Source of the DNA: Candidatus Saccharimonadota bacterium
Lineage (GTDB): Bacteria; Patescibacteriota; Gracilibacteria; BD1-5; UBA6164
Reading direction: 5' to 3'
Length of the DNA: 32,000 nt
NCBI GenBank assembly: GCA_004563595.2
Contig: CP042461.1
Coordinates: forward strand, 900,001-932,000
Both the position numbers and the translations under genes were made by a program. Below are positions 4,635-32,000 of this stretch, in pieces; position 1 is the stretch's first letter; each line of letters begins with the position of its first letter. The notes under the pieces were generated by a model. That model searched no databases. It saw only the letters and a list, made by a program, of their open reading frames with translations, and was not told the DNA's origin.

Positions 4635-6689
4635 TTATACTTTCACCTGCCTCTTCTTCAAAACCTTCGCAAGTACAATAGTAATAATAAATAATATGGC
4701 TGCGAAATAGAGCATTGTAATATCAATATCACTAATAGCTTGGCTAAATGATTCTATTTTTTGATTATGAAACGCTGATCAGGCAATAACAAATACTGAA
4801 GCTCATGGGATTATTCAGATAAGAGTAGCAAGGAAGAATCCTTTAAAGTTAATCCTTAAGAATCATGAAATATAGTTTACAAGATCAAATGGAAAAAATA
4901 ATAATCTCGTCATAAGGATCGTCATAAATGGAGATTCATTTGCTTTACTCTTTAAATCATCTACCAGTCATCCATGTGAATCTGGTCAGATAATTTTTTT
5001 CCCAAAAACAGTTCATAAGAAATAGGCAAATGCTGCACTCATATTTTCCCCCACTAATGTGAAAGCAATTCATAACCAAGGACCAAACAATGCACCAGAC
5101 ATAAATGTCATCAAAGTAGCTGGGAATAATACTACTGGTCTAATTGCATAAAAAAGTATGTATATAAATGGCCCAATTGCCATGTTTCCAGATATAAAAT
5201 TATAGATATTTATCGCGATTTGCTCCACATCTAAATTGTTCATCTTTTTATAATAAAAAAATGAAAATATAATTATGAACCAGATAGTGGCTGTTACGAC
5301 TTGGAGTATATTATCTTTGATATAATATTTTGCTTCGTTTTTTATATTCCCCAAAGTATGAATCACAAAACTATCACATACTTTTTTGATGAGTTCTGCT
5401 TTGGTAGGATATGCAAAAATAGTTTTAGAAATCTTATATGCTGAGATATTATTCTCCATTGCTGAAACAAGTATAGGTAACATTTCTCATGCTTTCGTTC
5501 AAGCAATAGTGGCTCATAAAATCTTTCAACTTACTCTTTTAAAATTAATTTTTACAAATCAAACTTCATCATCAGTAAGTTTGCTTCTATCATTTCCTGA
5601 AAAATACAGTGTCTTTGTTACAATATCATCCTTTGAATAATATTTTAATAATTCTGTTCATGTCTTTCATACTCTTGCTATCTCTGTATTTGTATATAAC
5701 ACAGCTGGTAAAACCGACTTTTTTACTGATTTTTTTAAAAATGGAACTAATATGTTTCTTATTACACCTCTTCATTCATTATTTGCAAGGTGAGTAAATT
5801 GAGGATTTCACTTCACACAATCTCATATAGCATATATATTTTTTGAGGATGTTCTGTTAAATTTATCTATAGTTATCCCCTTCTGATCAAACTTTATATT
5901 CGCATTTTTCATATCTAATCCATTCACATTTGCCCCTCTTCATAATGCAATCAAAACTTTATCAAAAGGAATTTTTCTTTCTTTCTTTCAATCCTTATCC
6001 AGAATAACAAGCTCTTTTCATTCAGCTCTCAGAGCAGTTGTATTCTTGCATATTTTTATTCATTTACTTTCAAATATTTTTTCAAGTAATTCTGAAGACT
6101 TTCCTTCTTCTCTTGGGATAAGATTCTTATTTCTTTGGAGAATAGTTACATTGACATTACTATTTGCAAATGATTCTGCAAGCTCACATCCAATATATCC
6201 TCAACCAATAATAACTAATTCTTTTATATTTTCCTCAAGTTCAAATACATTTTCATTTGTAAAAATATCTTTTTTATCGAGTCCTTCAATAGGAACTATA
6301 TTTGCATGTGATCAAGTAGAGATAACAATATTTTTCGCTGTAATTTCTTTTTCTCCATCTATGAGAACTGTATTTTTATCTTTAAAACTGGCAAATCAAC
6401 TGATAACTTTCATTCCATATTTTTCTAATTTTTCTTTTGTCTCTTCATCTCTGATTACTTGCCTTCTTTTTCGTACTTCTTCTAAGACTCATTTTATATC
6501 TTTGTGATGTCCTTTTTTTGCAATATCAATAAAAGCTTTTGATGGCACACATCAAAAGTTAGTACAGTCCCCTCAAAAAAATCATTTTTCTATTAATGCA
6601 ACTTTCTTTCATGCTCATGCAAGTCATATAGAAACTGTGAGTCATCCTGATCCAGATCATATTACTATTACATCATAATCAAATTTCAT
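4635..6689 (-). CDS. Fusion protein: N-terminal FAD-dependent pyridine nucleotide-disulfide oxidoreductase (dihydrolipoamide dehydrogenase/mercuric reductase-like) plus C-terminal DedA/TVP38 (SNARE-associated) membrane domain
   Basis: 684-aa ORF (ATG 6687-6689, TAA 4635-4637), checked codon by codon for absence of TAA/TAG. N-terminus: MKFDYDVIVIGSGSGGLTVSI (FAD fold), redox-active disulfide GGDCTNFGCVPSK, NAD fold LVIIGGGYIGCELAE, and dimerisation region ILGATIAGTKAGEMLPILVSAMENNISAYKISKTIFAYPTKAE. This runs directly into TM helices and the DedA-like YAIRPVVLFPATLMTFMSGALFGPWLG. The junction lies inside standard-code ORF 5070-5483, so the fusion is not a recoding artefact. Confidence 0.85.
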
Positions 6690-6846: not shown

Positions 6847-9081
6847 ATGAATATGAAAAAACAAGCATTTACTATTATCGAGCTTATAGTTGCTATTACA
6901 ATAATGGCTATTATATCAATAATAGCATTTATCTCTCTCCAATGATATTCCAAAAATGCTCGTGATTCAGTGAGGCAATCTGATATTGCACAAATTACCT
7001 CTGTAATGTGATTGTACGAAAAACAAGTATGAAGGTTTCCAAAACCAACCGAATGAGTAGATATAACATATAGTTGAGCACAAGTTTGGAACCAATGAAC
7101 TATTTGAGATAGCGTAATACTAAATTTATGAGATTTTAATCAAAAGCCTGTTGATCCCCTTACCTGATCAGAATATACATATTCAAGACTTAATACAAAA
7201 AGTGAATATGAAGTAGCTGCTGTAATGGAGTGATGAATATCACAAAATATATTAACAGGAAATACATACGCAGAGTGAAACATAACCTGATATACCTATA
7301 TAAGATGAAATTATAATAAAATACTTGCAAAAGTGAATACTTGATCTATTACTTATGTTTTAGGAGTCCCTACTATTATTTCATGAGATATAACGCTAAG
7401 AGATATAATTTCACTTATGCAATCTTCATCTCTCGTGTATAATGGCTCATCTAATTTACCAGCAAGTTATATATGAACTAGGTTCAACTCAAGTTGAAAT
7501 GGTGGATGATTTACATTTAATCCATGAAATATTGTAGCCTATACATGAACTACTGAATCTCTTAGTGATATAGATAATCAAGTGACATTGTTCAATAATT
7601 TACAAACAATTTATACAGCTACTGATGTAGTAAATAATAATGGTATTATTACAAAAATAGTTGATGCAGATGATTGAACTGTAGAAGAAAAGATATTAGC
7701 GAGTATAATAGTAAAGCAACATATTAATTCTTGAATAGAATTATATACGGATACGTGACCTGTATACTTTGTAAGTTCTATCACAACAAACGCATCAGGG
7801 AAATCATATTGAGAATCCATTATTTATGATTCTTCTTGATATATATATATAACAGGTTTGTACAAGTGAGATGTAACAATTTGAACTGATACATATTCTA
7901 GTGCTTGAAATTACGATATATTCTTAGCAAAATTTGATTCTAGTTGAAATTATATATGGAGTCAATCAGCTTGATGAACCGGGAAAGATGTCCCTTATAT
8001 GTTAAATATAGATTCCAGTGATAATTTGTATTTAATATGAAGATTCTCAGATTGAAGTCCTGATATTTTTTGAACAACATTTACTAACTCATGAGATTAT
8101 GACATATTTTTAACAAAATTTGATTCTGATTGAAATGTATTAATCAATAAAAAGTGAGGTTGAACTTGAAATGATAGACCAAAAGGGATAGTAATTTGAA
8201 ATGATTGATCTGTGTATATAACATGACAATATGACTGAACTGCTGATATTTTTTGAATGTCTATCAGCTCTCCTGACGCAAATCCTGATAGTTTTGTAGT
8301 GAAGTTAGATAATACATTAACAAGCACATGGGTCCAAAATGCAAACTCAATTTGAATTGATTGGTGAAATACTATTGCTATAGAGGATATAACTTGAGAC
8401 CTATATATAGCTTGATCTTTTTCAGATAATATGACTTTATATTGAGCCGCTATCACTACTTATTGACAAGGTGATTCATACCTACTTAAAATGAATAATT
8501 CAGGGGTATTACAATGGATAAATACTTCTTGATGAGTATGATATGAAGAGTCTGAACACGTAATCATTGATAATAACTGAGATATTTTTTTTACAGGGTG
8601 GTTTAGATGAATCTCTGCAACACTATTTTGAGAAGTTGTAAGTTCACCAGATAATGGTAGTCGTAATGATACCTATGTTTCAAAATTAACGAGTAATGGT
8701 GTCCTTGTATGGAATAGTATTTGAAAATGACCCGGAAATGATTATGGGCAAAAACTTGCACTAGATAATGATTGAAATATATATTCAGTTTGATCTGTTT
8801 GATTATGAGAAAATAGTTTATTTGGAAAAACTGTCACGACATCGGTAGATGGGGTTACCTATGTAAGCAAGCTTGACTCTAATTGAAATGCTCTCTGGAG
8901 TAAGTTATATTGAGAACATAAAATTAGAGATGATTATTCGGATATAAAGTTTGATGGAACAAGTCTATATCTAGTATGAGGATACGAATGAACATCAACG
9001 GTTGCGTGACAAAGTCTTACAGCTATTTGATCAAATGAAGCATTTTTTGGTAAAATAAACGCGGATTGAAATATTGAATAG
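6847..9081 (+). CDS. Giant type IV pilin/pseudopilin-like protein with a C-terminal beta-propeller-repeat (SBBP-like) domain
   Basis: 744-aa ORF (ATG 6847, TAG 9079-9081), frame checked throughout. N-terminus MNMKKQA|FTIIELIVAITIMAIISIIAFISLQGYSKNARDS is a prepilin-type leader plus hydrophobic helix with Glu at +5. Also a pilin-like QKPVDPLTGSEYTY. The C-terminal two thirds carry repeated units of the type FLAKFDSSGNYIWSQSAGGTGKDVPYMLNIDSSDNLYLIG, FLTKFDSDGNVL, VSKLTSNGVLVW, LDNDGNIYSVG and VSKLDSNGNALW, in which many of the Gly are TGA. Confidence 0.85.
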
Positions 9082-9561: not shown

Positions 9562-9596
9562 AAAAAAAGACGAGATTTCAAATCTCGTCTTTTTTT
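9562..9596 (-). terminator. Rho-independent terminator of the trx-ccdA-msrAB operon
   Basis: Perfect 10-bp stem agacgagatt (9568-9577) / aatctcgtct (9581-9590). On the minus strand it directly follows the msrAB TAA and is followed by a T-run. Confidence 0.85.
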
Positions 9597-10689
9597 ATTC
9601 TTCAAACATCTTCACATATTCTCAATACCCTTCTCCTTCTAAATCTTCATCAGCTATAAATTTCAGAGCAGCTGAGTTAATACAGTATCTGAGTCATCAT
9701 TGATCAGATGGTCAGTCTGAGAAAACATGTCAGAGATGGGAATCTGCTTTTTCGGACCTGACTTCAGTTCTTGTCATAAAAAACTTTGTATCCTCTACTT
9801 CTTCTATGTTTACTTTATCAATAGGCTTCGAAAAACTTGGCCAACCAGATCATGAGTCATATTTATCTTTTGATGAGAACAATGGGGTCCCATCAACTAT
9901 GTCTACATAAATTCCTGCTTCTTTATTATCATTGTATTCATTATCAAAAGCTCTCTCAGTTGCATTTTCCTGAGTCACTCTATATTGAAGGTCTGTGAGT
10001 CTTTCTTTTAAACTTTCCTTATCATTTTTTGTTTCTACTTTTTTTGCAGAATCTCACCATGTATCTTCTATATATCCTTCCCTTCATGATCATTTTGCAT
10101 AGATTTTATATTTCAAGGCAGATTTCTGTGCGTAATCTTGATGGTACTCTTCTGCTTTATAAAAAGCAGTAAATGGAAGTATTTCAGTTACTATTTTTTC
10201 ATCATACTTTCATGAGTCGTCTAATATCTTTTTTGAATTTTCTAAAATTTCTTTCTCTTCAGGAGTATTATAGTACATCGCTGTTGTGTAGTGAAAACCT
10301 CTATCAGCAAATTGTCATCCTGCATCTGTTGGATCTATTTGCTTCCAGAATAAAGAAACGAGATCTTCATAGTTTACAATTTCTGGATCAAAAACTACTT
10401 TTACTCATTCTCTATGTTTTGTATTTCAAGATGAAACTTCTCAGTATGTGGCAGTTTCTTCTGTTCATCATAGGTATCAGCTTGTTGCTTCGATAACACC
10501 ATCTTGAGCATCCATTATTCACTCAATACACCAGAAACAACCTCAGGCTATGTATAATTCTCTTGCATTTTCTGTTTCCATAGTTTTTTTTGTTATATCT
10601 TCTACCTTTTCCCCATTATTCACATGAACAAAAGCAGAAACTAAAATTATAGTTGCAACAATTCCTAGAACTGTTCATATAGTTTTCAT
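9595..10689 (-). CDS. msrAB: Membrane-anchored/secreted peptide methionine sulfoxide reductase MsrA-MsrB fusion
   Basis: 364-aa ORF, no in-frame TAA/TAG. N-terminal TM/signal [21 protein letters not shown]. MsrA motifs: AGGCFWCIEG, SGYLGGTEETATY, HREGVKVVFDP. MsrB motifs: [20 protein letters not shown] (G = TGA at 9730-9732), [10 protein letters not shown]. Confidence 0.93.
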
Positions 10690-10691
10690 AA

Positions 10692-11423
10692 TTATTTATT
10701 TACTTTATCTAAAATACTCTGTTCAAAATTTGTAATATCAAATATTCCAGCATCAATAACAGCTGACTCAAAGTCTTTATCCCATCACATTATAATTGCA
10801 AAACCTAAAAATAGAAATAATACTCATAGTACTTTTTTAAATTTTGATTTTGGACTTGAAATTCATTTTACTTTTGATATAAATTTCTGACCAAGAAGAG
10901 CTATAAGTAATAATACTACACTCAACCCAGTTACATATGCAAGAAGGTTTATAATTCCTGTCATAAAACTTGCTGGCAGTACCACGGCAAGAATAATTGC
11001 ATATGTTGGACTACAGCTTGAAAAGACAGGACCAAGAGAGAGTCAAACCATAACACTTCATATATGTCATTTTTTTTGAGCACTTTTTCACAATAATTTA
11101 TTTGAATTACTTGAAAATCCTAACTTTGTAGAAATATTTTTCCATACATCTGGAAATAATGTTACAATTCAAAACCCTATAATAAGAACTCATGAAAATA
11201 ACTTCCAAACGATTGGATCAATAGCAATAAACAGAGTTGTTGCTTTGAGTACGAGCGAGAATACAATAATTGATGCAGCAAGTGACAGAATAATTATATA
11301 TGGTCGTATTTTATCTTTTGCATCTTCTATACTTGCTCATAAAATCACTGGTAAAAGAGGTAAAACACACGGAGATAATATGGTTAAAACTCCTGCGAAA
11401 AATGATACTATTAGTAGTCACAT
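10692..11423 (-). CDS. ccdA: CcdA/DsbD-family thiol-disulfide electron-transfer membrane protein
   Basis: 243-aa ORF, ATG-TGA start at 11418-11423, TAA 10692-10694, 2 nt upstream of the msrAB ATG. Motifs: AGVLTILSPCVLPLLPVILG and second-half LGPVFSSCSPTYA. Multiple TM helices. Confidence 0.9.
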
Positions 11424-11450
11424 GATTATTTTTTATTATTAAATAAGCCC

Positions 11451-11488
11451 CTTGAATTCTTTCCCCTTATAAGGGGAAAGAATTCAAG
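11451..11488 (-). promoter_or_regulatory. Long perfect intra-operon stem-loop between the thioredoxin gene and ccdA
   Basis: 18-bp perfect inverted repeat cttgaattctttcccctt (11451-11468) / aaggggaaagaattcaag (11471-11488) with a 2-nt centre, locally GC-richer than the flanks. It sits 10 nt after the upstream stop and 27 nt before the ccdA ATG. The minus-strand downstream sequence GGGCTTATTTAATAAT is only weakly U-rich. Confidence 0.5.
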
Positions 11489-11498
11489 TGAAGAGGTA

Positions 11499-12755
11499 TT
11501 AAGATTTCACTTCAGCTAAAATATCTTTTACACTTCTTGATCCGAACCATTTTTTTATCATGTTTCCATTATCATCAATTTGTACAAAAGTGTGTTGTCA
11601 AACAACTTCATATTGTTTTCTTAAAGCAGTACTCGAGTCAAAATCTACTTTAAAGATATTTAATCAAGCTGGTATAGTTTCTGCTGAAATATTCTTGTCA
11701 GCTGCTTTACAACTACTACACCAAGTTGCATGGAAGAATAAAATTTTATCTCATAATGCATTTTTTACTGCTTCTTGTGAATACTCAACATATTGTCATA
11801 TATTATTTTTCACTTCCTCAGTTTCTAAAACCGGCTGAACTTCTACCTCTACTTCTTCTTTTACTTCTGTTTTTGTTTCTTCTTGTATCTCTTCTTTTAC
11901 TTCTGTTTTTGTTTCTGTTTTCACTTTTATATTTTTATGTTCTCCTAGTCCACTTAATATATCTTCTACTGTTTTTGAAGCTCTCCACATTTTTAATTTA
12001 TTCATTTTTTTATCTACTTCTACAAAAGTATGCTGAGAAGTGACTCCGTATTTTTGTCTTAATTCAACATTTGAATCAAAATCTATTTTAAAAATACTTA
12101 AACCAGCTGGTATTTCAGATCCTCTCAGACTCGTATCAGCAGCTTTACATGTTGCACACCATGAAGCATGAAAGAATAATACTCTTCTTCATTTCCCTGC
12201 TTTTACTTCTTCTGCTACATTTGATTCAGTCACATCTTTATAAATACCTTTTTCAAAAGTCACAGATGTTTTTTCAGAAAATCATACTTCTCATTCTATA
12301 TCTTCTATAGTTTTTCCTCAAATCCACTTTTTTATCATATTTCATTCATTATCAACTTGAACAAAAGTATGTTGAGCAACGATTCAATATTTTTTTCTTA
12401 ACTCAAAATTTGAGTCGTAATCTACTTTAAAAACACTTAATCCAGAGGGAACTCATGATTCAGTTATATTCTTATCAGCAGTTTTACAACTCCCACACCA
12501 ACTTGCATTAAAAAATAAAACTTTCTTTCATTCTGTATTTTGAATAGCTTCTTTACTGTATGTAATATATTGTCATTTAGATTGATCTAAAGAAATATCT
12601 TTTATTTGTTTATCTTCAGTTTTTTGATCTTCTATATTTGTAACATTTGCAACTTTAGAATTTGTATCCTCCTGTACCTTTTGGTCTTGTCATGATGTAC
12701 ATGATGCTAAAAATAAAACTCATAAAATAGGTATTAAAACAAGTAATTTTTTCAT
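11499..12755 (-). CDS. Lipoprotein with three tandem thioredoxin-like domains (WCGSC, WCATC, WCSSC)
   Basis: 418-aa ORF (ATG 12753-12755, TAA 11499-11501), frame checked. Lipobox MKKLLVLIPILGVLFLASC. Three paralogous modules of about 95 aa each carry VLFF(N/H)A(S/T)WCxxCKxAD ... GL(S/N)(V/I)FK(V/I)D(Y/F)DS ... QHTFV(Q/E)(V/I)D. A K/E/T-rich linker separates modules 2 and 3. Confidence 0.9.
11855..11916 (-). repeat. Tandem 36-nt repeat in the K/E/T-rich linker of the triple-thioredoxin gene
   Basis: Identical 26-nt core cttcttttacttctgtttttgtttct at 11855-11880 and 11891-11916 (period 36 nt), encoding the repeated ETKTEVKEE units. Confidence 0.8.
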
Positions 12756-13824: not shown

Positions 13825-14580
13825 ATGATAGATTTAATCACACTTACAAATAAAGAAGTCTCTAGGTTTTTAAGAGTCTGGAAACAAACACTTCTACCAC
13901 CAATAATTACAATAGTTCTCTATTTACTTATATTTTGAAAATTTATCTGAGATAAAATTTCAATTGTAGAATGAGTAAATTATATAGATTTTATATTTCC
14001 ATGATTACTCATGATGTCTGTTATTATGGCGAGTTATCAAAATACCAGTTCATCATTCTTTGGTTCAAAATTTCAGCATAATATAGAAGAGCTCTTTGTT
14101 TCTCCAATAGCACATTGGAAGATACTCGTTTGATTCTGTGTATGAGCTATTCTCAGATGAATGATGGTATGATGATTTGTGTTTCTTGTATGAATATTCA
14201 TGGTAGACTTAAATATAGTCAGCTATGCATACATGTTTTTATTCTTATTTCTCAGTTCAACTCTCTTTGCTTTATTATGACTCTTTAACGGTATATTTGC
14301 AAAGACATTTGATGATATTGCTATCATTCCTTCATTTGTAATTACTCCTCTTATTTACTTATGATGAGTATTTTATTCTACAGACCTCCTCTCACCTATT
14401 TGGCAAGCAATCAGTCAAGTGAACCCTATTCTCTATATGGTAAATGGTCTCAGGTACGCTTTTATAGGAATTACGGATGTAAATATAAACCTTGCTATCT
14501 GAATACTAGTGACCTTTATCATAATCTTTATATCTGCAAATATGTATTTATTGAAAAAATGATATGGTATTAGAAATTAA
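13825..14580 (+). CDS. ABC-2 type transporter permease
   Basis: 251-aa ORF starting 11 nt after the ATPase stop. About six hydrophobic helices. N-terminus LTNKEVSRFLRVWKQTLLPPIITIVLYLLIFG and a C-terminal region NPILYMVNGLRYAFIG typical of ABC-2 permeases. Confidence 0.85.
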
Positions 14581-14615
14581 AAAAAGACTCTGTAAAAATT
14601 ACAGAGTCTTTTTTT
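14581..14615. terminator. Bidirectional terminator between the ABC permease and the A2M gene
   Basis: aaaaagactctgta-aaaat-tacagagtcttttt: stem gactctgta (14586-14594) / tacagagtc (14600-14608) flanked by an A-run and a T-run. Confidence 0.85.
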
Positions 14616-14622
14616 AATTTCT

Positions 14623-17600
14623 TTATTTTACTTTAAATATCTCTCATCTTGTTCTTCAGAATACTTCTACATTATAAAATTCACTAATTTTTGTTGGTTT
14701 TATATGGTATTCTCAAGCATGAGTTAGTCTGATAAGGTAACTAAAGTTATGAATACCATTATACAGTCTATCTGTATAAGCAAAGTATCTATCAGTTCTA
14801 TATTCTTGTTTTTGGAAAAGGTTATTATTAAATCTATTCGTAGCTTTTGTTGATGTTGATAAATTTGGATTCACAAGCTCAGATCCTGCTGGAATAAATC
14901 ATTCAAATGCCACTTTATTTCTTGTTTCAGATGTTATAATCTTGTTTCTTACTACTATTAAATCTCATACATTTCATAGCTTAATAGGAGCAAGATATTC
15001 ATATATATCTTTTGGATATTTTAAGTCTTTATATGATGCTTCTCATTTATGATACTTTTTATTCTCTTCTTTTTTGAGATTATATATTTTATTATATTCG
15101 TTGTAATCATAATAATACCTTTCAACAAAGAATCATTCATCACGTGCTTTTATATCTTTTGTGTCTTTATAATAGCTAAGGTTTAAGTCATAGTATACCG
15201 TTCACTTTCAAGATTTATTAATGGTAAAATTACTTGATGATTTTATATTGTCAGTTTTGAGTGATGTAGAATATACTTCCATTTTATTATTTTCATCAAA
15301 GTTTTTTTCAGCAATGGTATCATTATTTATCTTTAGTTTTGCATGAAATTTGATATTTTTTAATTCTCCTGATGATTCTATATATTTTGTAACTCCTTTG
15401 ATAAGAGCAATATTATCCTGTGTTGATCAGAATGATCCATCTTTCTTATTTGATATAATCCACCTATTTATATTATCAACTATTGAATCGAGATCATCAA
15501 ATTTTTCTAATCAGATCGTTGATACAGCTTCAAGAAGAGAAACTGTATTTCTAAACGCTGAATAATATGAAGTTTTACCAATAAATGCTCCTCTTGGGTT
15601 AAACACAAGCTCTTCAGATATAATTTTATCAACTATTTGTTTTGCTTCTTTTTCTAACTCACTTCTTTCATCTTTATTTATTTCCTGAACTTTTAATAGT
15701 TGGGATATAAGTTTTACTTTTTCTAGTTTTACAGTATTTGAATATGTCTTATCTATTTCTAATAATTTCCACATTTTATATGCTTCATAATCTGTTGTAT
15801 CAAAACTGAGTATTGCTGAGATAGCTTTCATTCTATCAATTTCACTATACTTACAATCATTGTATTCTGTTACTTGGCATCATTCAATATAATTTTTATA
15901 AAACCTTGTTTTTAAATACTTCGTTGTTTTATAATACGGAGCTTCTTCTAACTTATATCAAATTTCTCTTATAGAAGCAGCACTCTGTAAAATATATGAA
16001 CTCAGATCAAAGTCTGAATAATTTGGTCAATAGCTCACATCATACCAATAGACAAATCCTCCATCATATTTTTGATATTTTCTAATGTTCACTAAATACT
16101 CTTTGATTGTTTGATCAATTGATTTTTCAGAATATCATTCATATTCTCATGCCCAATATTTGAGCATTTTAGTTTGTAAATTATATTCTTCTCAAACAGA
16201 ACTATATAATTTCTTAATAAATATATTTGGCATAATAGCTGAAGTTTTTTGTTCAGAACAACCGTATGGATATCTATTTAAGTAATCGATCCCATCTGTG
16301 AGGTTACTGAGGAGTGTTGCTGAGTAATTGGCTGTTATTTTTCATTTTGAACTGTTTATATTTCCAAGCTCTAGTTTCTGTTCGAATGAATCATTTTTTG
16401 TTTTTCAAAAAGTAGAAACTGATTCTTGTGTTGATGACTCGTGAATCTGTACTTTTTTTTCTATTTCATCTTGATGCTGATTATCTTCTGATACTGCTTT
16501 AAAAGTAAGAGTACTAAAGAAAAAATCATTTTTTTCACTTAAGCCTATATCATCAACTGTAACATCAAAGTGAACGGTTTTTTGATCTCCATTTTTAATA
16601 AATATTTTTTGTTTATTTTCCGATATATTTTTTAGATTTGTTGCAGAAAGCATTACACTAAATATTTGGTCTTTCCCTGTCTTATTAAATACTACTGGTG
16701 AGAGCATTATACTATCATTTGATACAAAAAATCTTGGAAGATTATCATTTATGAGTAATTCTTTACTCGTAATAATAGTAGTATATGTTACTCATACTTT
16801 ATTCCCTATACTTGTATTTGCCAGAGTTTCAATCACCCATGTTGTAAGGTTATCTGGAAGATTTGTTGTCGTCATACTTACTTTTCAATTTGTATCCGTA
16901 GTCACATCAGCACTCCAATATGCTGTATCTTTAAATGTTCCTCTTTTCTTTTTTGAATCTCATCATTTTACCCTGTCTCATGCTCATCATTTTTCTCCAT
17001 CACTGGTATCTTTTACCTCTAATTTTTCAATAAGAGTTTTGAGTGATCCATAAGTATATGTTCATAAATACCTTTTCATATCATAGAAAAATGCATATGG
17101 GTTCTTTCTTGGGTTTCATTTGAGTGCTAATAGACTCTCATCAACTAGTGATATACTCAGGTTAGTATTTGCAATAGGATTTCAGTTCTTATCTTTTGCT
17201 TGTATGTCTAATTTTACTTTCTCTCATGGAAGATATTTTTGTTTGTCTGTTTTTATATCTATGAATATTTTTTTATCTTCGGTATCTACCTTTGTAACTG
17301 TTAATGCTCTTTTATATATTGGAAGTGGATTTCCTTCTTGTTGTCATATGAGGTATGCTCTCAGATAATAGTTTGGATAGTAGGTATCTTTTACATCTAT
17401 AGTGATTTTATCTGAAAATGACTGAATATCATGTATGAAGTAATCAAGTATCGCATCATCTTTTTCAACTATGAAAAGTGCTTTTCATGAAGACACAGGA
17501 GTTTTTAACATGTATTCAGCTGTATCTCCTACTTTTATTTTCAACTTATCAGCAACAAGCTCAGTTACTGAGTTATTCTCATTTGGCCATATAATATAAT

Positions 17601-20600
17601 CTGCTCATGCTACATATACTACTTTTGAACTTATAAACTCTTTGTTATTTTTTCAAGTATAGATTGCTTTGATAAGATATTCTCATGAAGTTTTTGTTTT
17701 AATGTTCTTTTTGAATTCTCCAAGAGTATTTGTAGAGGTAAAAATATCTTTTTCTTTTATTTCTTCAAGTGAATAATCATTATAGAACACTCCATCAACT
17801 CACTTTTTTTTCACTGATTTCCATTCTCTTTTAATCAGTTCTAGTTTCACTTTTTTATTAGCGAGTACTTGAGCATCAAAATTAAGCACTACTCAATTTA
17901 TATCTATTCAGCTTTCTTTACTATTATAATAATTTGTTTTTATCCCAACGTATGCATCTGTGGTATGAAGAATTTTTGATACTGATTTATTTACCACTCT
18001 TTTTGTATCAGGATCAGTCACCTCTATATTAAATCTGTGAAGCTTTTCTCAGAAATTATCATCAAATTTATAAACTAGATTATAAGTTCCATCATCATGA
18101 ATATCAAATGAGCTCGTGTCGATAAGCTTATCACGATAGTTACAGTATCCCCAATACACACATTCAAAATATTTATATCATTCTCAAAAATTATAATCAG
18201 AATAGTCTTTGGCATCAAAGAAATAGTTTTGAGTAAGTATACTATATTTTCATGATGTATTTATAATTTTCCCACCAAAGTAATACTCAGGTTTCACTTG
18301 TATTTGCACCGAGTCTCATAGAATAAAATCTTTTTTGCTCTCAGAGGTTTCCAACTTAAAGTCTGGTTTCCTATACTCTTCAATATGGAAAAAAGCATTA
18401 TTTCTTACACTATTTTTGTCTGCTGTTCCAGTAAACCTAAAACGAAATTTTCATAAATTTACTTCTGCTGGTATAATAAATTCTCCTGAAAAATTTGAAT
18501 TATCATCTATTGTAATATCTTTTGAGGCTATACTTTTTCCAGATGGATCTATCAGTTCTAGCTTTGCTGTTTCACTTTTTGATTTTGTATATCATGTTGG
18601 AGAAAAATATCTTAATAATCATTTAAAGTAGACGATATCTCCTGGTTTATAAATAGGTCTTTCAGTATATAAATACAAATAATCTTTTTGTGATGAACTC
18701 TCACCTGAGATATATTTAAAATCATAATTTGAAAAACTATCATATCTCAAGTTTAAAAATCAATAATTATTTTCTCATGATGCAGCTACGTAACTAAAGT
18801 CAGAGTTTTCTATTTCATATACTCCATTCACATATGTAGATTTTGGTGTTACAACACTATCTTCCTGTTTGTATGACTTTTTATTATATTGAGTTTTATA
18901 AAACTTGAGATTAAGGTTTGGAATACTATTTCACCCAAAGTCAGTGATATATAATAAATTTTTATTTGATGCTTTCTCAAAATATACCGAAAGATTTGAT
19001 TTTTTATATGTTGTCTCAAATTTATCCTGTCATGGATGTGTTCATGCTGAAACTATAATAAACTTCTGGGTGAATTTAGTTCCTAAAATATCTTCTTCTA
19101 AATCAAACCTGTTATTTGATAGATTCCAATTATAATTTTTTAATTGTAGTTGTTTTGTTTGTGTATTATTACATTTTTTAACATATCAGTTCTGGTACCT
19201 ATTTGCCAGATGATATATATAATTTATCTCATCCATTTCACATACTTCTACGTGTGCTTCACTATTATTAATAGATTGTAAATTCATTACTATCGGCAAA
19301 TTATCAGGAATAGTGTTTACATCATTTGAAAGGCCTGAATAAAGATATTTATCTTTATCTAAAATGTCTTTTGTTTCTACTTTGTATTCAAGCGTATTTT
19401 CTAAACTATTATTATATATATCCACAAAGTTATTCTCGATTGCAAGTAAGTAGCTTGAATGTGGATTGAGCCTTGTATTTAATACATAAAGAAATTCTCA
19501 TGATTTTGCTTTTCTACAATATCATAATTCTTCTAATTCTTGATCAGGTTTTCATTTTAATTTATAGGGTATATGTTGGTACCCACTTACTCATTTTTGA
19601 ATAGATTCAGGGCTTGTACTATATACATGAACACTTTGTTTCCATGCGTTTATTTCATTATTGAGGTATAAACATGTTTTTGAATAATTAATAAATTTCA
19701 AATCTTTCACTATCAGTTTGTCTGTTGTATCATAAGTAGTCACAATGTCATCTGTGAGAGATTTATTTATAACTTTGAGTACTTGAAGAGTATAAGCTGT
19801 TTTATAATTCAGATCTGTCTTTAAAGTGAGTTTAATTTTCTTTTTATTAATAACTACTTCATCCTTTTTAAGTTCTTTATTATATTTTTTTTCTTCTCTA
19901 TAACTGATATCAAAGTCTATTTTTTCATTATTACTCGAAAAAGAAAAGTTAGTTTTATTCAACTCTACTTCTTCATAAAAATTTAAATGAAAAAATAGAT
20001 CTTTATTTGCTATTTTACTTTTGTTACGCTGATAAGTGGAGTCTAATAAAACTCATGTTGAAGAATATATATTTTGGTATGCATCAATACTATCTAAAAG
20101 CTCTATCGTTTTGAGCTGTTGAAATATAGGTTTGGTAGTAGAGATATTTCCATTTTTAGACTTTAATCCAGTTGCTATTTCTAGAGTATATTGGCTGTTA
20201 TATGTAAATCCATCATGAGAGAGAGAAAAATGAGTATCTGATATTTTTAAAACTTTTACATCAAGTGCTGGGCTTTTATTTTTTGCTCAAATTTTATTCT
20301 CAAATAATTTGAATTTACTTTTTAATTCATCGATACTGACAGGAAAATTAAAATTGATATTAATTCCCTCAGTTGGAGCAAAATTTTGAGAAAAATATGC
20401 TTGTAGCTTTGTTGTTGATAATTCTATTTCTTTTGTTTCTTGAAGTTTATATAATAAACCTTCTCTATCCTCTACTTTTACTGAATATTTTGTTGCTCAA
20501 ACAAAAGAATCATTAGGAGTAAATTCTAAAACTGAAGTTGTGGTCCAACTACATTTTCATTCAATTTTTGGTTCAATAACTATTGGACATGGAAGAGAGT

Positions 20601-21120
20601 CTCTTGAATCTAAATCTGTAAGAGGAACCATTGGTATATTAAAAAATACAGCCAAGCTTTGTCACAGATTATTTAATTCTCATGATGGAGTTATTTTGAG
20701 AACTTTTGCTCACGAAACAATTTCAATAAGGAAATGAATATCACTTTCAAGTGCCCTTCATTTTTTTGTTTGTAATCATTTTAAAAAACTAATACTCAAT
20801 TCATCTCAAGTCTTATTCTTCTCAAGAAAGGTATATCTGAGTACATTTGATTGAAGCATAGATATCTTCCCTTCAATATTTGATTCAAAGTTTTGTATAC
20901 TTGTTTCATCTAAATCATACGAAAAAGTGAAGTCTATATGATCTTCTGTTACTGGTATTTTTTTATATCACAAATCAAAATTTCAAGCTGTAACTTCAAA
21001 TTTTGCAGGGGCTAGGTTTTCAAAAAAGTTTGTATTTTTTTGAAAATGAAAGAACCCAGTAATTACAAATATAAATATTACTAGAGCTGAAATCATTGCA
21101 TATCTTTTCCTCTTTTCCAT
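14623..21120 (-). CDS. Bacterial alpha-2-macroglobulin family protein (thioester-containing, N-terminally membrane anchored), 2165 aa
   Basis: Every triplet from 21120 down to 14623 was checked: no TAA/TAG and dozens of TGA. N-terminal anchor MEKRKRYAMISALVIFIFVITGFF. MG-domain signatures TERPIYKPGDIVYFKG and FHIEEYRKPDFKL. RGTFKDTAYWSADVTTDTNGKVSMTTTNLPDNLTTWVIETLA. Thioester site YPYGCSEQ. C-terminal receptor-like region VAFEGFIPAGSELVNPNL ... EYRTDRYFAYTDRLYNGIHNFSYLIRLTHAGEYHIKPTKISEFYNVEVFGRTRGEIFKVK. Confidence 0.92.
16249..16272 (-). other. Thioester motif YPYGCSEQ of the A2M homolog
   Basis: The minus-strand codons TAT CCA TAC GGT TGT TCT GAA CAA can be read directly. This is the CxEQ thioester signature (E. 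coli YfhM has CLEQ, eukaryotic A2M has CGEQ). Confidence 0.85.
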
Positions 21121-21151: not shown

Positions 21152-21179
21152 ATTTTAGATTTTTTAGTAAGATTGTAAA
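21152..21179 (-). promoter_or_regulatory. Possible sigma70-like promoter for the A2M gene
   Basis: Minus strand TTTACA (21174-21179), 16 nt spacer, TAAAAT (21152-21157), about 30 nt upstream of the ATG and downstream of the preceding terminator. Such matches are frequent in AT-rich DNA, so this is weak. Confidence 0.25.
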
Positions 21180-21237: not shown

Positions 21238-22065
21238 TTATTTTTTTGTTTTTATAATGAATCAAATAATGAAAATAATAAAAATTCAAATAATATAGTA
21301 TAAATTACCGATTTTATTATTTTCAGAAATAGCTAGTATTTCTTCCTTATCCAAGAAATCCTTATTATCTATATAATTTAAATTTTTATTTATAGCACTT
21401 TTACCTTTGCAGAATCATCCATTTTTAATAACTTCATTTACAATTTTTTGCTGAATTGCTATTTTTTCTTCCTCAGAACTATATTTTTCATATGGAATTC
21501 ATATAGATTCAAATATAACAGGTCAAATACCTTCAAACAAAGAGTTGCAATCTATAACTCAGTCTATTCATATCCCTGTTCAGTCTATTTTCGTAATACC
21601 ATTTTTCAAATATACCTGAGAAATTTCTTCTTCCCATTGATCTTCAGATTTTTTTTCAGGGGTATTTCTATTTATAGCAAAGTCTCCCCTCTTATCTCTA
21701 TAATTAGTGATAATAGTGTCTCATTTTTGAGGACGATATCATCCATTTTTCACATATTCCGATGCTATCATATCCAAAGAAAACTCACTCGTTGAAACAT
21801 ATACTCATTTACTCAATAACTTGGTTTCATCTCATCTATGAGTAAAATATTTATAATTTTCAAGTTCAAACACATAATACTTTCTCTTATCCTCTCATAC
21901 TTCTAAAGAATAATATGGATCTTTATCCAAAGTAATAATCTTTACATTTCATACCTCTCATAAAATAAAACCATATTCTATTTCATTAAGTCATTTTCCC
22001 CCTCAAGCAAAAGAGTCAGCAAGAAGAAATATTTGCAGTAATAATATGCATAATATTTTTTTCAT
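21238..22065 (-). CDS. Hypothetical exported protein with an N-terminal signal peptide and a C-terminal hydrophobic anchor plus basic tail
   Basis: 275-aa ORF under table 25, frame checked, with many in-frame TGA. N-terminus MKKILCILLLQIFLLADSFAGGG. C-terminus NNKIGNLYYIIGIFIIFIIGFIIKTKK-stop. No recognisable catalytic motif. Confidence 0.7.
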
Positions 22066-22134: not shown

Positions 22135-22821
22135 TTAGTTACGATAAAATGTTGGTCTATACACATGAAACACTGTATATGTTTGATTAATTGACTGTAA
22201 TGTAACATTTTTCTGTGAAGAATGACCATCACTATTTTGGTAGCTTACCTTGATGCCACTATATGAATTATATAGCTTATCAGTCACTATCATAGAATGA
22301 TCAATATGCCCATTTCCTGACCAATCAGCAAAAATAACATCACCCTCTTCAACTTTTGAAGTATTCAAGTATTGCGTTGAACTATCTTTGGTTATAAAAT
22401 CAAAGTGCATCCCCCAATATGAATTTGAGTTACTTTTTGCATAAGTGTAGAGTTCATGAGCACCAGCCCATGCATAACCTCGTGATGATGGAGTATTATA
22501 ATACCAACAATAATCACACCCTTTATCTCTATCTGCCATATAATAGCCACGCTTATTATATACATAGTTCTTGTCAGAATTATCTACCAAACCAGCTAAA
22601 ACTGCTTGACTAACAAAGTTAGTACAGTTTCCACCATATGATTGATACTCTGGAAATGCAGTACTAGTTTTTGCATAATTCAATGCATACTGTACTGCTG
22701 GAGTACTGGAATAAGTACAAACCCCCTTAGCATAGTCACCACATGAGCTTGAACTCGCAGACATAGCTACACTTGAAAAAAATGAAGCTAGTACAATCAA
22801 AACAACAAAAATTTGTCGCAT
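22135..22821 (-). CDS. Secreted putative cell-wall amidase (Amidase_6 / NlpC-P60-like papain-fold domain), UGA-free
   Basis: The ORF is uninterrupted in the standard code. Preferred start is ATG at 22819-22821 (MRQIFVVLIVLASFFSSVAMSA signal peptide); the stop is TAA. Motifs: AVQYALNYA ... YGGNCTNFVSQAVLAG (Cys nucleophile context) and GHIDHSMIV (His). All 15 Gly are GGN and none is TGA. Trp is TGG. The sequence is visibly less AT-rich than its neighbours. SD-like AAGGAAAAG lies upstream of the ATG. Confidence 0.8.
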   Translation of the reverse strand: MRQIFVVLIVLASFFSSVAMSASSSSCGDYAKGVCTYSSTPAVQYALNYAKTSTAFPEYQSYGGNCTNFVSQAVLAGLVDNSDKNYVYNKRGYYMADRDKGCDYCWYYNTPSSRGYAWAGAHELYTYAKSNSNSYWGMHFDFITKDSSTQYLNTSKVEEGDVIFADWSGNGHIDHSMIVTDKLYNSYSGIKVSYQNSDGHSSQKNVTLQSINQTYTVFHVYRPTFYRN

Positions 22822-26113: not shown

Positions 26114-26147
26114 ACAAAAAAACTGAGCTTTCGCTCAGTTTTTTTTA
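26114..26147 (-). terminator. Rho-independent terminator of der
   Basis: Stem aactgagc (26121-26128) / gctcagtt (26133-26140) with loop tttc, between an A-run and a T-run. It begins at the der stop codon and lies upstream of the CDF gene start. Confidence 0.8.
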
Positions 26148-27521
26148 TTTCACTACATCAACATGTTTCCCTCTTCATTTATACTCAATTGTAATTGGAG
26201 TTCCAAAGAATCCGAAATTATCTCTGATTTTATTTTCAAGATATCTTTTATATGAAAAATGAAAATGATTTGGATTATTTACTGTCAGTACAAACTTTGG
26301 TGGATTTACGTCTGCTTGAGTTCAGTAATATATTTTTGGATTATGTGATTTTTTATTTCAAGTTGGTGGATGTTTATAAATAACTTGCTCCATGAAGTTA
26401 TTAAAAATTCAAGTTTTTACTCTTTTAAAACGTTCTTTTTTAATTTCTTCTGCATTTTCTAAAATCTCATCAACTCTTTTTCTTTGCGTAGCTGATGTAA
26501 ACACAACAGATACCCATGGAAGAAACTCTATTTTACTCTTTAGGTAATCTACATACCTATTCATCATTTTTTCTTTATCTACTCCCGGTTTATCTAAAAC
26601 TTTATCCCATTTATTTACGACGATAACAAGTCATTTTTTTTCTTCAAGTACTTTTGAAATAATAGATAAGTCTTGATGTACAATACCATCAAAACCATCT
26701 ACAACTACAGCAATAACATCAGCTCTTGTAATTGCTCTATTGGTTCTCATTACTGACCAATCTTCTATATTTCTCACTCATACTTTTGAGAGCCTTCTTA
26801 CTCATGCTGTATCAATAAGTACAAAGTCTGATTCTTTAAATTTGAATTTTGTATCTATGCTATCTCTTGTTGTATGGTCCATATCTTGTACCATTACTCT
26901 ATTCTCTCAGACTATAGAGTTGATTAAACTTGATTTCCCTACATTTGGTCTTCATACCATTGCGAGTTTTACAAATGAATCATCAATTTCTTCATGTTCA
27001 TAATTCAGTCCTTTTTTAGTTAAGAAATCTGCAACAAATCTTTTGATATCTTTCATCCCTGTATTATGAGATACAGAAACTGGGAAAAATGCTAAATTAT
27101 CTCCGTATCCAGCATGTGAATACGCTTCCATAATTTTGCTTTCGTTATCTGCTTTATTAGCGACAAGAATAACATCAGAAATATTCTTTTCTCTGATTAC
27201 TTTTAATACTTGTTCATCAAGTTCAGTGATTCTATCATATTCAATAATCCATATGAGTAAATCACTTGATTCAATTGATTTTTCTGTTCTCTCTGCAATA
27301 TCTTTTGTGATTTCATCTGTTTTTGAGCTAAAATCTAGCCCACCTGAATCTGATAATATATATGTTAAATTATTATCTTCATCATTGTACTCATATTCAG
27401 AAATATCTCTTGTTGTCCCTTCTTCATCAGCGACAATTGCGATTTTATGTCCTGAATACATATTGAAAAAACTTGATTTCCCTACATTTGGTCTTCAAAT
27501 TATAGTTACTTTTGCTAACAC
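26145..27521 (-). CDS. der: Ribosome-associated GTPase Der (EngA), two tandem GTP-binding domains plus KH-like C-terminus
   Basis: 458-aa ORF, frame checked. No ATG after the upstream in-frame TAA, so GTG at 27519-27521 is used. GD1 P-loop [14 protein letters not shown] (G = TGA at 27495-27497), DSGG, NKAD. GD2 [23 protein letters not shown]-terminal [23 protein letters not shown]. Confidence 0.92.
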
Positions 27522-28971: not shown

Positions 28972-30858
28972 TTAATTTTGTTGAGTATATTCAGTTCAAA
29001 CAGCCCCATGAGGAACATTATTCTTCTTTCATCAATCTACTATTACGTGACTCGCTAAACTAAATGATGATGTTGTATAATGTATGGCAACTCTTCAACC
29101 TCATCCTCATCATCCACTATTTCCTGGATATGTAGCATGATAATATGCATTTCATCCATTTGCATAAATATACCCTGTTCATGATATATCTCAGGCTTCT
29201 ATCCATACACTTCATCAAGAACCTCATCATCCCGCTCTTCTTTGTGTACTTCACATCGTTCATGTTCAATCTGCTCAGTTTGTAGTTATAACCCCATCCA
29301 AAACCATACTTCAAGCTATATGTAATTGAATTGCTCATCCTCCTTTTCATCCATAACTCCAGTTTCATCATCCACTTCATATATCTATTGGCTCAGTTGA
29401 ACTTCCGTAAGATGGTCATCATGCAGCCGAAAATCCTGATGCTCAAGCTCATCCATATCCTCATCCTCATCCAGTATAATACCAGGTTGGTCCTGATTCA
29501 TATACATAATATACTCAATTTCCAGGTCATGTACCTTTATTATATCACCCAAAATCAGCATTTATATATCAACCTGATTCTAAAGTCATACTTGAAGCAA
29601 CAATATTAACAATATTTACTTTTGAAGTTGTGTTAGGTACATGTATTATGGTACCATTTGACTTAACAGTTATATCTCAAATCATTGTTAATTCAGATAG
29701 TCATGATAGCTGAAGAGTAGTTGCATTCGTTCATCATATTTCTAAAGAATAGACTTCAACTCATCATGTAGTATCAAGACTAATAGTTGCATTTGCATCA
29801 ATAGTTACTGCGTCTGATGATGTTGGTAACCTTCATAGATCCCAATTGGCAGTATTTGACCAACTTGTACTTGCTCCTCAAGTCCAAACAATAGGAGTCG
29901 GTGGAATACAAGCATCTCATACTGATTTAACAAATCAAGTATTACATTTCCAACTACATCCTGCAGTTGCTGATATATCGTAAGACCATGATTGGTCATC
30001 TGATGTAGCCGTTCAGTTGTAATATACTGCATTGCCTATACTTGGTTCTGCAGAACATGCATAAGATACAAGCTTTCCTCATAAGAGTAATACTGCAAAA
30101 TTTTCTAAATCGTTATTATCACCTAAGTTTACTCAAGAGAGATAATTGTATTCTCCAGCACTTAAATCAGTTGATCCACTATAAGCAGAGTGTAGGTTTG
30201 TTGTAAAATTTGCATAATTACCAGAAATATTACTTGTATTTACTCCTAAATCTTGCACTGTAAATAGAGTGTCATGTGTATCTACATGGAACGTTGATTC
30301 CGCAGATAAATCTGCACCATCAGCATGAAGTGAAGGTGATGCATAGTATTTGTTATCACCTCAAATAACATAAAAACCATTATATTGTCATACTACCTTT
30401 GGAAAAGTTGTTTCAGAGGCATAAGTAGAATTTGTGATATTATTTTGTTGTGTTACCTCAAAATCATACATAAGTTGATATTCCTTTTGATTCAAGGTTG
30501 TTGAGTAATTCATATATTTTCAAGTCAATGGGTCTTCTGGGATTTTTGATATCCTCCCAACTTGTGTTTGTATAGAAGTAGCTACTTCTCATGTATGCCA
30601 AAGGTTTGTTCCTGATGCTGTTACGAGTGTTGATGAGTCTGGAAGAGGGTACTTACCATACTTAATCACATGTAATTCTAATACATTTTTAATTGATTGC
30701 ATATCAACTATTCTTGTAGAGTTTCTGGCTAATTTACTATATCATTGAAGTGATATAAAAGCGATTGTTCATAAAATAGCCAAAATAGTAATTGTAACGA
30801 TCAATTCAACAAGGGTAAAAGCTTTAGTAGATCGATATGTTTTTTCAAGTATGTTCAT
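28972..30858 (-). CDS. Giant type IV pilin/pseudopilin-like protein with a glycine-rich (beta-helix-like) C-terminal domain
   Basis: 628-aa ORF (ATG 30856-30858, TAA 28972-28974), every triplet checked. N-terminus MNILEKTYRSTKA|FTLVELIVTITILAILGTIAFISLQGYSKLARNS is paralogous to the 6847 gene. Also KIPEDPLTGKYMNY. The C-terminal third has YYTGGGGGYGGAGASGFSAAGGPSYGS, GSGGGNWSYGGKGGGAIQLHIAG, RRAGGGGSGGSVWIEAGDISGTGYIYANGGNA and GNSGGGGGGGRVAIHYT. Confidence 0.85.
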
Positions 30859-31042: not shown

Positions 31043-32000
31043 TTATTCCTCTTCTTGAATAACTTCAATATGAAGTTCTGTTAATTGTTCATCATCTATA
31101 AATGAAGGCGCATTCATCATAGCATCTTGACCTTTTCATGATTTAGGAAAAGCATATACTTCCCTAATATTATGTTCATCCTTGAGAATCATCATAAATC
31201 TATCCATTCAGATAGCAAATCATCCATGTGGAGGAACTCCATATTGAAATGCTTCATACATAGCTCCAAATTTCTCTTGTACTTCTTCTTTTGTTCTTCC
31301 TACTGTTTCAAAAGCTTTTACAAGACTTTCAATATCATGATTACGGATTGAACCTGATAATATTTCATACCCGTTACAAGCAAGATCATATTGAACTGAT
31401 TTTACATCTAACAGATTTTCTTCATTAAATGCTTCTACTCAACCTTTTGGCATAGAGAATGGATTATGTCCAAAATCTATTTTTCCTGTTATTTCATTTT
31501 CTTCAAACATTGGGAAGTCTGTTACCCAACAAAATGCAAGTAAGTCTTTTGAAGCAAGATCCATGAGTTCTGCTAAGTGGATTCTAAATCTTCCCATATA
31601 ATCACAGACTAAATCTTTTTCTCAAGCTCAGAAGAATACTACATCTCAAACTTCAAGCTTTGTAACATTTACTATTTCTTGTAAATCAGCTTCTGTAAAG
31701 AATTTATTGAGAGGTCCTTTTAATCCATCTTCTTTCATTTGAAAATATCCAAGTCCTTTTGCTCCAAATTTTCTTACATAATTTTCAAATCCTTTCATTT
31801 GAGTTTTTGAAAATACATTATCTCCATTTGGAACTCTAATAGCTTTGATTCTGTTTGTTGTTTTATCACTTGCAATAGAAGAAAAAATTTCATTTGTACT
31901 TTTTGCAAAGATATCAATCACATCTACTAATTCTAATCCATATCTTAAATCTGGCTTATCTGAACCATATTTTTCCATTGCATCAGCATAACTCATAGAA
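31043..32000 (-). CDS. aspS: Aspartyl-tRNA synthetase, C-terminal part (5' end outside the window)
   Basis: Open minus-strand frame from 32000 to TAA 31043-31045. [32 protein letters not shown] with both Gly as TGA (31628-31630, 31622-31624), aligning with E. coli [30 protein letters not shown], and class II motif 3 region [17 protein letters not shown]. Confidence 0.93.

Follow-up and report, generated by a model that had tools for sequence, protein, structure and literature searches.

An alpha-2-macroglobulin homologue with a thioester motif encoded with TGA as glycine in Candidatus Gracilibacteria bacterium 28_42_T64

A single minus-strand open reading frame (ORF) covers positions 14623-21120 of a 32,000-nucleotide stretch of Candidatus Gracilibacteria bacterium 28_42_T64 (contig CP042461.1, positions 900,001 to 932,000), the whole of which is called the window hereafter. 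The article describing the closed genome of this organism does not mention a macroglobulin (Sieber et al. 2019, PMC6851277). What does this very long gene encode, and against what would its product act? Its domains, motifs and predicted structure identify a type I (thioester-type) bacterial alpha-2-macroglobulin (A2M), and it is likely that the protein works as a membrane-tethered suicide protease trap.

Gene, genetic code and domain architecture

The frame extends from 21135 down to 14623 and is open when TGA is a sense codon; it has its first ATG at 21120, and 14623 is the last position of its stop codon. It encodes 2165 amino acids plus the stop, with 69 in-frame TGA and neither TAA nor TAG, and its 6498 nt represent 20% of the window. 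A sequence-only reading had described a recoded ORF of 2165 amino acids filling a fifth of the window, which is confirmed, while the strand had escaped it. A plus-strand reading of the same coordinates was ruled out, frame 1 being full of stops throughout. The chance of 2171 codons without a stop is ~1e-41, based on the six-frame TAA/TAG frequency of 0.043 per codon, and the ORFs of at least 150 codons in the window amount to 3.8 kb under table 11 versus 37.6 kb with TGA as sense.

Alignment with 36 standard-code homologues indicates how TGA is read. At the 69 TGA positions, 43.7% of the aligned cells are Gly and 1.0% Trp; the GGN codons of the gene face Gly in 47.8%, TGG columns face Trp, and conserved TGA columns are Gly in 25 cases out of 30. 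Because the TGA positions face Gly as the gene's own GGN codons do, the code is 25 (TGA = Gly), and code 4 (TGA = Trp) was ruled out by the same Gly and Trp shares. The code-25 translation is identical to QFR39416.1, deposited as “hypothetical protein A9Q91_04270” on a contig of 1.34 Mb, and an ENA contig from an independent assembly (412,643 nt) has the same locus. The label is probably due to NCBIfam finding no family: the scan of the protein returned no family match and one sub-threshold tandem-repeat match. TGA accounts for 61% of the Gly codons of the gene and 58% of those of the window. Since its TGA use equals the window average, the gene is a long-term resident, and this native codon usage led us to reject a recent horizontal acquisition. 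The suspicion of an assembly or recoding artefact, or of a pseudogene, arises from the 69 breaks that the standard code would introduce, and found no other support; the absence of TAA and TAG over the whole frame, the alignment of TGA with conserved Gly, the identical protein in independent assemblies and full-length orthologues in 16 species exclude it for practical purposes.

With Pfam matches counted only above gathering thresholds, the protein contains MG2, A2M_BRD, A2M, TED_complement and bMG10 domains and one Big_5 domain (Table 1). The best sequence matches in the PDB are the E. coli A2M, YfhM or ECAM (5a42, 4ziq, 4rtd), and the Salmonella A2M, SaA2M (4u48), with E ~1e-22. A phmmer search of the last 135 residues against the PDB returned nothing, and the pocket motifs were checked instead on the family alignment. 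The segments FEGFIPAGSEL (residues 2072-2082) and FGRTRG (nt 14644-14661), singled out by the sequence-only reading, are both present where it placed them, in a C-terminus formed by a bMG10 domain that ends …FGRTRGEIFKVK. Pfam, the PDB matches and the structural models described below all agree with the A2M identity that it proposed.

The AlphaFold2 (AF2) model of residues 1146-2165 has a pLDDT of 82.9 and a pTM of 0.69. Its top Foldseek matches are native ECAM (5a42, E = 2.7e-47, TMq 0.61) and SaA2M (4u48, TMq 0.60); the activated forms match less well (TMq 0.41 for 4ziq and 0.36 for 4rtd), and the ECAM fragment spanning MG7 to the C-terminus (4ziu) yields a TMt of 0.75. In this model, the C-terminal half is predicted to adopt a native-like fold comprising the MG ring, the bait-region domain (BRD), CUB, the thioester domain (TED) and the C-terminal MG domain. 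The fold is common to C3, C5 and TEP1, which rank below the bacterial A2Ms in Foldseek. The sole segment of low confidence (pLDDT < 50) comprises residues 1350-1391. Because the ECAM bait aligns with this segment, the protein is predicted to have a flexible bait loop at the canonical position. Lys, Arg, Asp, Glu and Gly are abundant in this loop of 42 residues.

The AF2 model of residues 1-960 (pLDDT 78.3) starts with a helix (residues 2-28), followed by an unbroken series of beta-sandwich domains. Foldseek relates it to ECAM, SaA2M and the ECAM MG0-NIE-MG1 fragment, and, as generic series of Ig-like domains, to the S-layer proteins SbsB, SbsC and Sap and to titin. About seven domains would precede the first MG domain that can be aligned with ECAM, roughly four of them beyond those of ECAM. 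The protein is indeed ~500 amino acids longer than E. coli YfhM, as had been noted (PDB constructs of 1614-1647 residues), and the place of the extra residues, missed at the time, is mainly N-terminal: query residue 757 aligns with ECAM chain residue 292 in the PDB sequence alignment, an offset that assigns ~465 of them to the N-terminal side. The remainder includes an insertion of ~31 residues near the C-terminal MG domain. A search for internal repeats in the N-terminal region with hhalign gave weak relationships alone (probability 61-76%), and this faint mutual similarity rules out a recent duplication as the source of these domains. Hydropathy identifies one transmembrane (TM)-like segment, at residues ~8-26, and none elsewhere in the protein. 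No lipobox Cys is present, the first 170 residues being devoid of Cys, and the same is true of all clade members; the simple N-terminal TM anchor first read from the letters is thus retained.

In the type I pocket, protection and release of the thioester are attributed to the motifs Y-x-Y-G-C-x-E-Q, RDDR and ExMY (Fyfe et al. 2015, PMC4498604). All of them are found: YPYGCSEQ, exactly at the position given by the sequence-only reading, RTDR for RDDR and SEFY for ExMY. By their sequences, RTDR and SEFY appear to be conservative variants of the pocket motifs; at the ExMY position, the whole clade has Phe instead of Met and retains Tyr. None of the 14 correctly translated orthologues has lost Cys, Gln or a pocket tyrosine, and 25 of the 28 database orthologues retain them too. 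The residue following the Cys of CxEQ is variable: S, A, L, V, T, I, C, M, N, F and others occur across 95 homologues, and S, I, V, A or L in the correctly translated orthologues. The Ser of CSEQ had been regarded as unusual; CSEQ is present in many standard-code bacterial A2Ms, and this part of the earlier reading has to be dropped. The same applies to the length, since A2Ms of ~2000-2200 amino acids with Big_5 domains are widespread across phyla.

Table 1. Coordinates of the A2M gene, its domains and motifs, and associated features in the window (aa, amino acids)
Feature	Coordinates (nt)	Strand	Basis
Complete A2M coding sequence, 2165 aa, ~249 kDa	14623..21120	-	Code 25, 69 TGA = Gly; identical to QFR39416.1
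Predicted N-terminal signal-anchor/TM helix, aa ~8-28, KRKR before it, no lipobox Cys	21037..21099	-	Hydropathy, AF2 helix, clade alignment
Predicted string of ~7 beta-sandwich (Ig/MG-like) domains, aa ~40-805	18706..21003	-	Pfam, ECAM alignment offset, AF2, Foldseek
Big_5 Ig-like domain, aa 244-325	20146-20391	-	Pfam
MG2 domain, aa 815-904	18409..18678	-	Pfam PF01835, E = 1.6e-20
A2M bait-region domain (A2M_BRD), aa 1187-1333	17122..17562	-	Pfam PF07703, E = 1.4e-11
Predicted flexible bait loop, aa 1350-1391, …LGTYTYGSLKTLIEKLEVKDTSDGEKGGAGDRVKGGDSKKK	16948..17073	-	pLDDT < 50, ECAM alignment, clade conservation
A2M family domain, aa 1399-1489, directly after bait loop	16654..16926	-	Pfam PF00207, E = 7.6e-14
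Alpha-helical thioester domain (TED), aa ~1603-1917	15370..16314	-	Pfam TED_complement (aa 1604-1719), AF2, Foldseek
Thioester motif YPYGCSEQ, aa 1617-1624 (Cys1621, Gln1624; pocket Tyr1617, Tyr1619)	16249..16272	-	Motif definition of PMC4498604
C-terminal MG domain (bMG10/CTMG), aa 2050-2165	14626..14973	-	Pfam PF17973 (aa 2050-2150), E = 4.9e-18
RTDR (“RDDR” motif), aa 2108-2111	14788-14799	-	Family motif alignment
S-E-F-Y (“ExMY” motif), aa 2146-2149	within bMG10 domain	-	Family motif alignment
Class A penicillin-binding protein, PBP1C-like, 664 aa	23150..25144	+	Pfam Transgly and Transpeptidase; divergent, 2 kb upstream of A2M
Promoter-like match TTTACA-16-TAAAAT	21152..21179	-	~30 nt upstream of A2M ATG; consensus match only
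Terminator-like long perfect hairpin, 20 bp, flanked by A and T runs	14574..14620	both strands	Between convergent A2M and ABC-2 permease genes

Relatives, bait conservation and the partner synthase

The survey of relatives returned a clade of 28 full-length database homologues, 2173-2283 amino acids long and sharing 37-52% identity with the query, and a full-length orthologue in 16 GTDB species representatives. In the clade alignment, every member has an N-terminus of the same TM-anchor kind. To note, most public copies of the clade proteins (P0001-P0029), including P0001, which is the A2M itself, have been translated with TGA as Trp; they contain 4-6% Trp and ~1% Gly, and the mistranslation introduces 40-100 wrong residues per protein. 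A2Ms of 1900-2170 amino acids with Big_5 domains occur in many phyla. A standard-code group among the homologues (P0030-P0035; 2136-2170 amino acids, 26-29% identity) possesses a TM anchor and the motif GC(S/T)EQ.

The most conserved block of the clade is formed by the bait and its flanks: residues 1321-1400 (nt 16921-17160) display 76% identity to the query, as compared to a mean of 44%, with the invariant pattern …LIEKLEVKD-S-GEKGGAGE-VKGGDSKKKRG…. The thioester region likewise counts as one of the most conserved blocks. Wide variation in length and sequence marks the bait region of A2Ms from other phyla.

A second A2M-like lineage, lacking the thioester motif, is found in code-25 bacteria (P0173, P0147, P0156, P0175, P0227 and P0066). 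Its members are 2159-2455 amino acids long, with a signal-peptide-like N-terminus and a long acidic bait, and include Vampirococcus lugosii MBS8121522.1. The thioester-bearing, TM-anchored lineage is also represented in Absconditabacteria (MEF2175972.1, with GCFEQ). Code-25 bacteria carry two paralogous A2M lineages, with and without the thioester motif.

In the literature, type I bacterial A2Ms are defined by their linkage to pbpC (PMC4498604, PMC5764988). In the window, a class A penicillin-binding protein (PBP) is encoded upstream of the A2M gene, a partner that the sequence-only reading had missed. Its best NCBIfam model is PBP_1c (430.8 bits), and it is best described as PBP1C-like, not as a proven PbpC equivalog. 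When all fetched loci were translated with code 25, an orthologue of this PBP was found to adjoin the A2M gene in 14 of 18 code-25 Gracilibacteria-type loci, usually directly upstream and divergent. In L010 and L019, the contig begins inside the A2M gene and the upstream side lies beyond it. A PBP is also adjacent to the A2M of a distant standard-code homologue (L004).

In addition to the PBP, the neighbours of the A2M gene in the window are an Amidase_6 gene (22135-22821), a 275-residue protein without assigned family (21238-22065) and an ABC transporter; the first two lie between the A2M and PBP genes. Neither the window nor the related loci that were examined have a protease gene beside the A2M gene. 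The Amidase_6 gene (minus strand; Pfam E = 4.8e-22) uses TGA for none of its 15 Gly codons, against a window share of 0.58 (binomial P = 2.6e-6), and has a GC content of 0.346 versus ~0.28; on this composition it looks recently acquired from a standard-code organism. A comparison with the flanks of 17 related loci revealed no homologue of it or of the 275-residue gene.

Proposed mechanism and rival readings

The mechanism proposed for the trap starts from the N-terminal signal-anchor helix, which would hold the protein on the outer face of the cytoplasmic membrane, with the ~7 N-terminal beta-sandwich domains as a stalk leading into the MG ring. Attacking endopeptidases would meet the 42-residue bait loop. 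Once they cut it, the lock between the TED and the C-terminal MG domain would open, upon which the exposed Cys1621-Gln1624 thioester, if formed as in the family, would react with surface lysines of the protease and capture it both covalently and sterically. The PBP1C-like peptidoglycan synthase may cooperate with the trap as the repair half of a “defence and repair” module, which Budd et al. reportedly proposed in 2004 for A2M-PbpC pairs. The organism makes peptidoglycan and S-layer proteins and has no lipid A pathway and no PilQ, from which the absence of an outer membrane has been inferred (PMC6851277). In such a cell the trap would not guard a closed periplasm but be in direct contact with the environment or the host interface. 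It is plausible that it neutralises proteases of the host or of competitors at the cell interface.

Several observations weigh against this mechanism or against some of its parts. The pocket departs from consensus, with Phe for Met in ExMY and Thr for Asp in RDDR. Three of the 28 clade proteins, P0017, P0020 and P0029, have lost the Cys while retaining full length (YPYFGAEQ, YSYSSSEQ and …FWAQEK, respectively), suggesting that some lineages can do without the covalent step. The score of the PBP, 430.8 bits, is below the PBP_1c equivalog cutoff of 494.2, and its BiPBP_C match is sub-threshold (E = 0.014). L003 and L017 have no PBP, although several kb flank the A2M gene on either side. The A2M-PBP pair is split here by the two inserted genes, each member apparently having its own promoter and terminator. 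Finally, a near-invariant bait is atypical for a broad-spectrum trap.

This last point bears on the identity of the targets. The same trap mechanism may be directed mainly at the organism's own secreted peptidases, as envelope self-protection in a digester of external peptides. Secreted peptidases are reported to be numerous (PMC6851277), the A2M is tethered to its own membrane, and a near-invariant bait would be easier to reconcile with a conserved self protease that co-evolves with it than with a foreign set that changes. With no protease gene beside the A2M in the loci considered above, and with sequence unable to separate own from foreign targets, we regard this assignment as rather unlikely. 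A bolder proposal is that the thioester A2M of Gracilibacteria and Absconditabacteria is dedicated rather than broad-spectrum, its invariant bait being tuned to one conserved protease, from the bacterium itself or from the host; in an extreme version, cleavage would lead to covalent coupling at the host-epibiont interface of a cell lacking an outer membrane and equipped with a dedicated PBP1C-like synthase. We consider it improbable.

Two further readings depart from protease trapping. In one, the thioester would serve covalent attachment, as a proteolysis-triggered “harpoon” tagging or tethering host-surface molecules in the manner of complement C3, insect thioester proteins (TEPs) or Gram-positive thioester-domain adhesins. 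Relatives of the organism live as epibiotic predators, and their giant surface proteins are believed to mediate contact with the host (PMC8080830); the A2M would be exposed at the surface if, as inferred, the cell has no outer membrane, and its fold is shared with C3, C5 and TEP1. Yet the closest structural and sequence relatives are bacterial protease traps and not C3 or TEP, the PBP1C-type synteny is a hallmark of the defence module, Pfam detects no adhesin-type domain, LPXTG signal or anaphylatoxin domain, and the membrane tether is N-terminal, far from the TED; a harpoon is very doubtful. In the other, the protein would be a largely structural scaffold of the envelope or S-layer that has kept the A2M fold without trapping, or a non-covalent trap like type II A2Ms. 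The resemblance of the N-terminal model to SbsB, SbsC and Sap, the three clade members without Cys and the thioester-less paralogous lineage of the same bacteria speak for it. It is nevertheless exceedingly improbable in view of the retention of Cys, Gln and pocket tyrosines in 14/14 and 25/28 orthologues and of the place of bait and thioester regions among the most conserved blocks. The type I protease trap thus stays the likely function.

Other genes of the window and comparison with known systems

Scans of the window for tRNA genes and Rfam families returned no match. At the hairpin downstream of the A2M gene, three overlapping terminator-like predictions were obtained versus 0.1 expected. 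Two pilin-like proteins with an N-terminal methylation motif are encoded at 6847-9081 (plus strand, 744 residues; beta-propeller (SBBP) repeats, 70 TGA codons) and at 28972-30858 (minus strand, 628 residues; C-terminal half very Gly-rich). An extracytoplasmic redox-repair cluster (9595-12755, minus strand) comprises an MsrA-MsrB fusion, a DsbD-type membrane protein and a lipoprotein-like protein with a LASC lipobox and three thioredoxin domains; lipobox-type signals therefore exist in the organism, although the A2M uses none. The gene at 4635-6689 (minus strand) encodes a 684-residue fusion of a pyridine-nucleotide disulfide oxidoreductase (Pyr_redox_2/Pyr_redox_dim) with a C-terminal VTT/DedA-type membrane domain. 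The housekeeping genes (31043-31996, 26145-27461 and 2702-3901) use TGA for Gly less than the window share: 0.26 for the C-terminal part of AspRS (P = 8.7e-4), 0.38 for EngA/Der and 0.36 for the aminotransferase.

Two large membrane proteins with A2M domains have been described in Vampirococcus, a predator belonging to the Candidate Phyla Radiation (CPR), and defence against host proteases was proposed for them (Moreira et al. 2021, PMC8080830). A2M homologues have been noted in Absconditabacterales, other Gracilibacteria orders, Paceibacteria and WWE3 (Zhou et al. 2022, PMC9793634). The central idea of protease defence in such bacteria is therefore already published. Three points that were not found in the searchable literature look modestly new: the two paralogous lineages with the Vampirococcus protein in the thioester-less one, the bait loop as the most conserved segment of the clade, and the PBP1C-like pairing conserved in these CPR bacteria, here in a cell whose lack of an outer membrane has been deduced from its genome. 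The A2M is a currently unannotated member of a known family; variations specific to its lineage are the TM anchor, the additional N-terminal domains, the invariance of the bait and the presumed lack of an outer membrane around it. Should the A2M be functional, the module that it forms with PBP1C would extend beyond the diderm periplasm, and the retention of a gene of ~0.5% of the 1.34 Mb genome in ultra-small, host-dependent bacteria would point to protease attack as a real selective pressure at the epibiont-host interface. Correct annotation and separation of the thioester-bearing and thioester-less lineages would help to interpret the “giant surface proteins” of CPR predators.

Among A2Ms in code-25 CPR bacteria, Vampirococcus lugosii MBS8121522.1 (2368 amino acids; Vamp_6_203, Moreira et al. 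2021) is likewise a giant envelope protein, with the N-terminal module and A2M core in common and the same defensive role proposed. It differs by its ~25% identity, the sequence YPGDNLNS at the thioester site, the absence of CxEQ and of an E-F/M-Y motif, a long, variable and acidic bait and a signal-peptide-like N-terminus, and is type II-like by motif. The long-form Big_5 A2Ms of other phyla (~1900-2170 amino acids) resemble the present protein in length and N-terminal Ig-like domains, and P0030-P0035 also in the TM anchor and GC(S/T)EQ, with the adjacent PBP of L004; they differ by 22-29% identity, the standard code and, in distant phyla, a widely varying bait.

The type II A2Ms, such as Pseudomonas aeruginosa MagD and E. 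coli YfaS, share the overall A2M fold and a bait region. They lack CxEQ and belong to a six-gene mag operon, magABCDEF (PMC5764988), whereas here CxEQ is present, the partner is a PBP and no mag-type neighbours are found. Complement C3/C4/C5 and insect TEPs were rejected as counterparts, Pfam detecting neither anaphylatoxin nor C345C/netrin domains and Foldseek ranking them below bacterial A2Ms. A Gram-positive thioester-domain adhesin was rejected as well, the TED being embedded in a full A2M architecture that ends with bMG10.

ECAM (YfhM) and SaA2M are the closest known systems. They share with the present protein the architecture of MG ring, BRD, CUB, TED and C-terminal MG, the Y-x-Y preceding CxEQ, RDDR- and ExMY-type motifs, a flexible bait placed at the homologous site, attachment to the cytoplasmic membrane and genomic linkage to a PBP1C-type synthase. 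Structure-based sequence identity is ~15%. The present protein differs from ECAM by its ~500 additional residues and roughly four extra predicted N-terminal beta-sandwich domains, and from both by its TM signal anchor, CSEQ instead of CLEQ, RTDR, SEFY, the ~31-residue insertion near the CTMG, a short bait that is near-invariant in the clade and a host cell inferred to lack an outer membrane. Lipobox anchoring is typical of the characterised type I A2Ms but does not define their core, and is replaced here by the single TM anchor. The features that place ECAM and SaA2M in type I, namely CxEQ within a helical TED, the pocket motifs, the architecture, a flexible bait and PBP1C-like adjacency, are all found in the 28_42_T64 protein.

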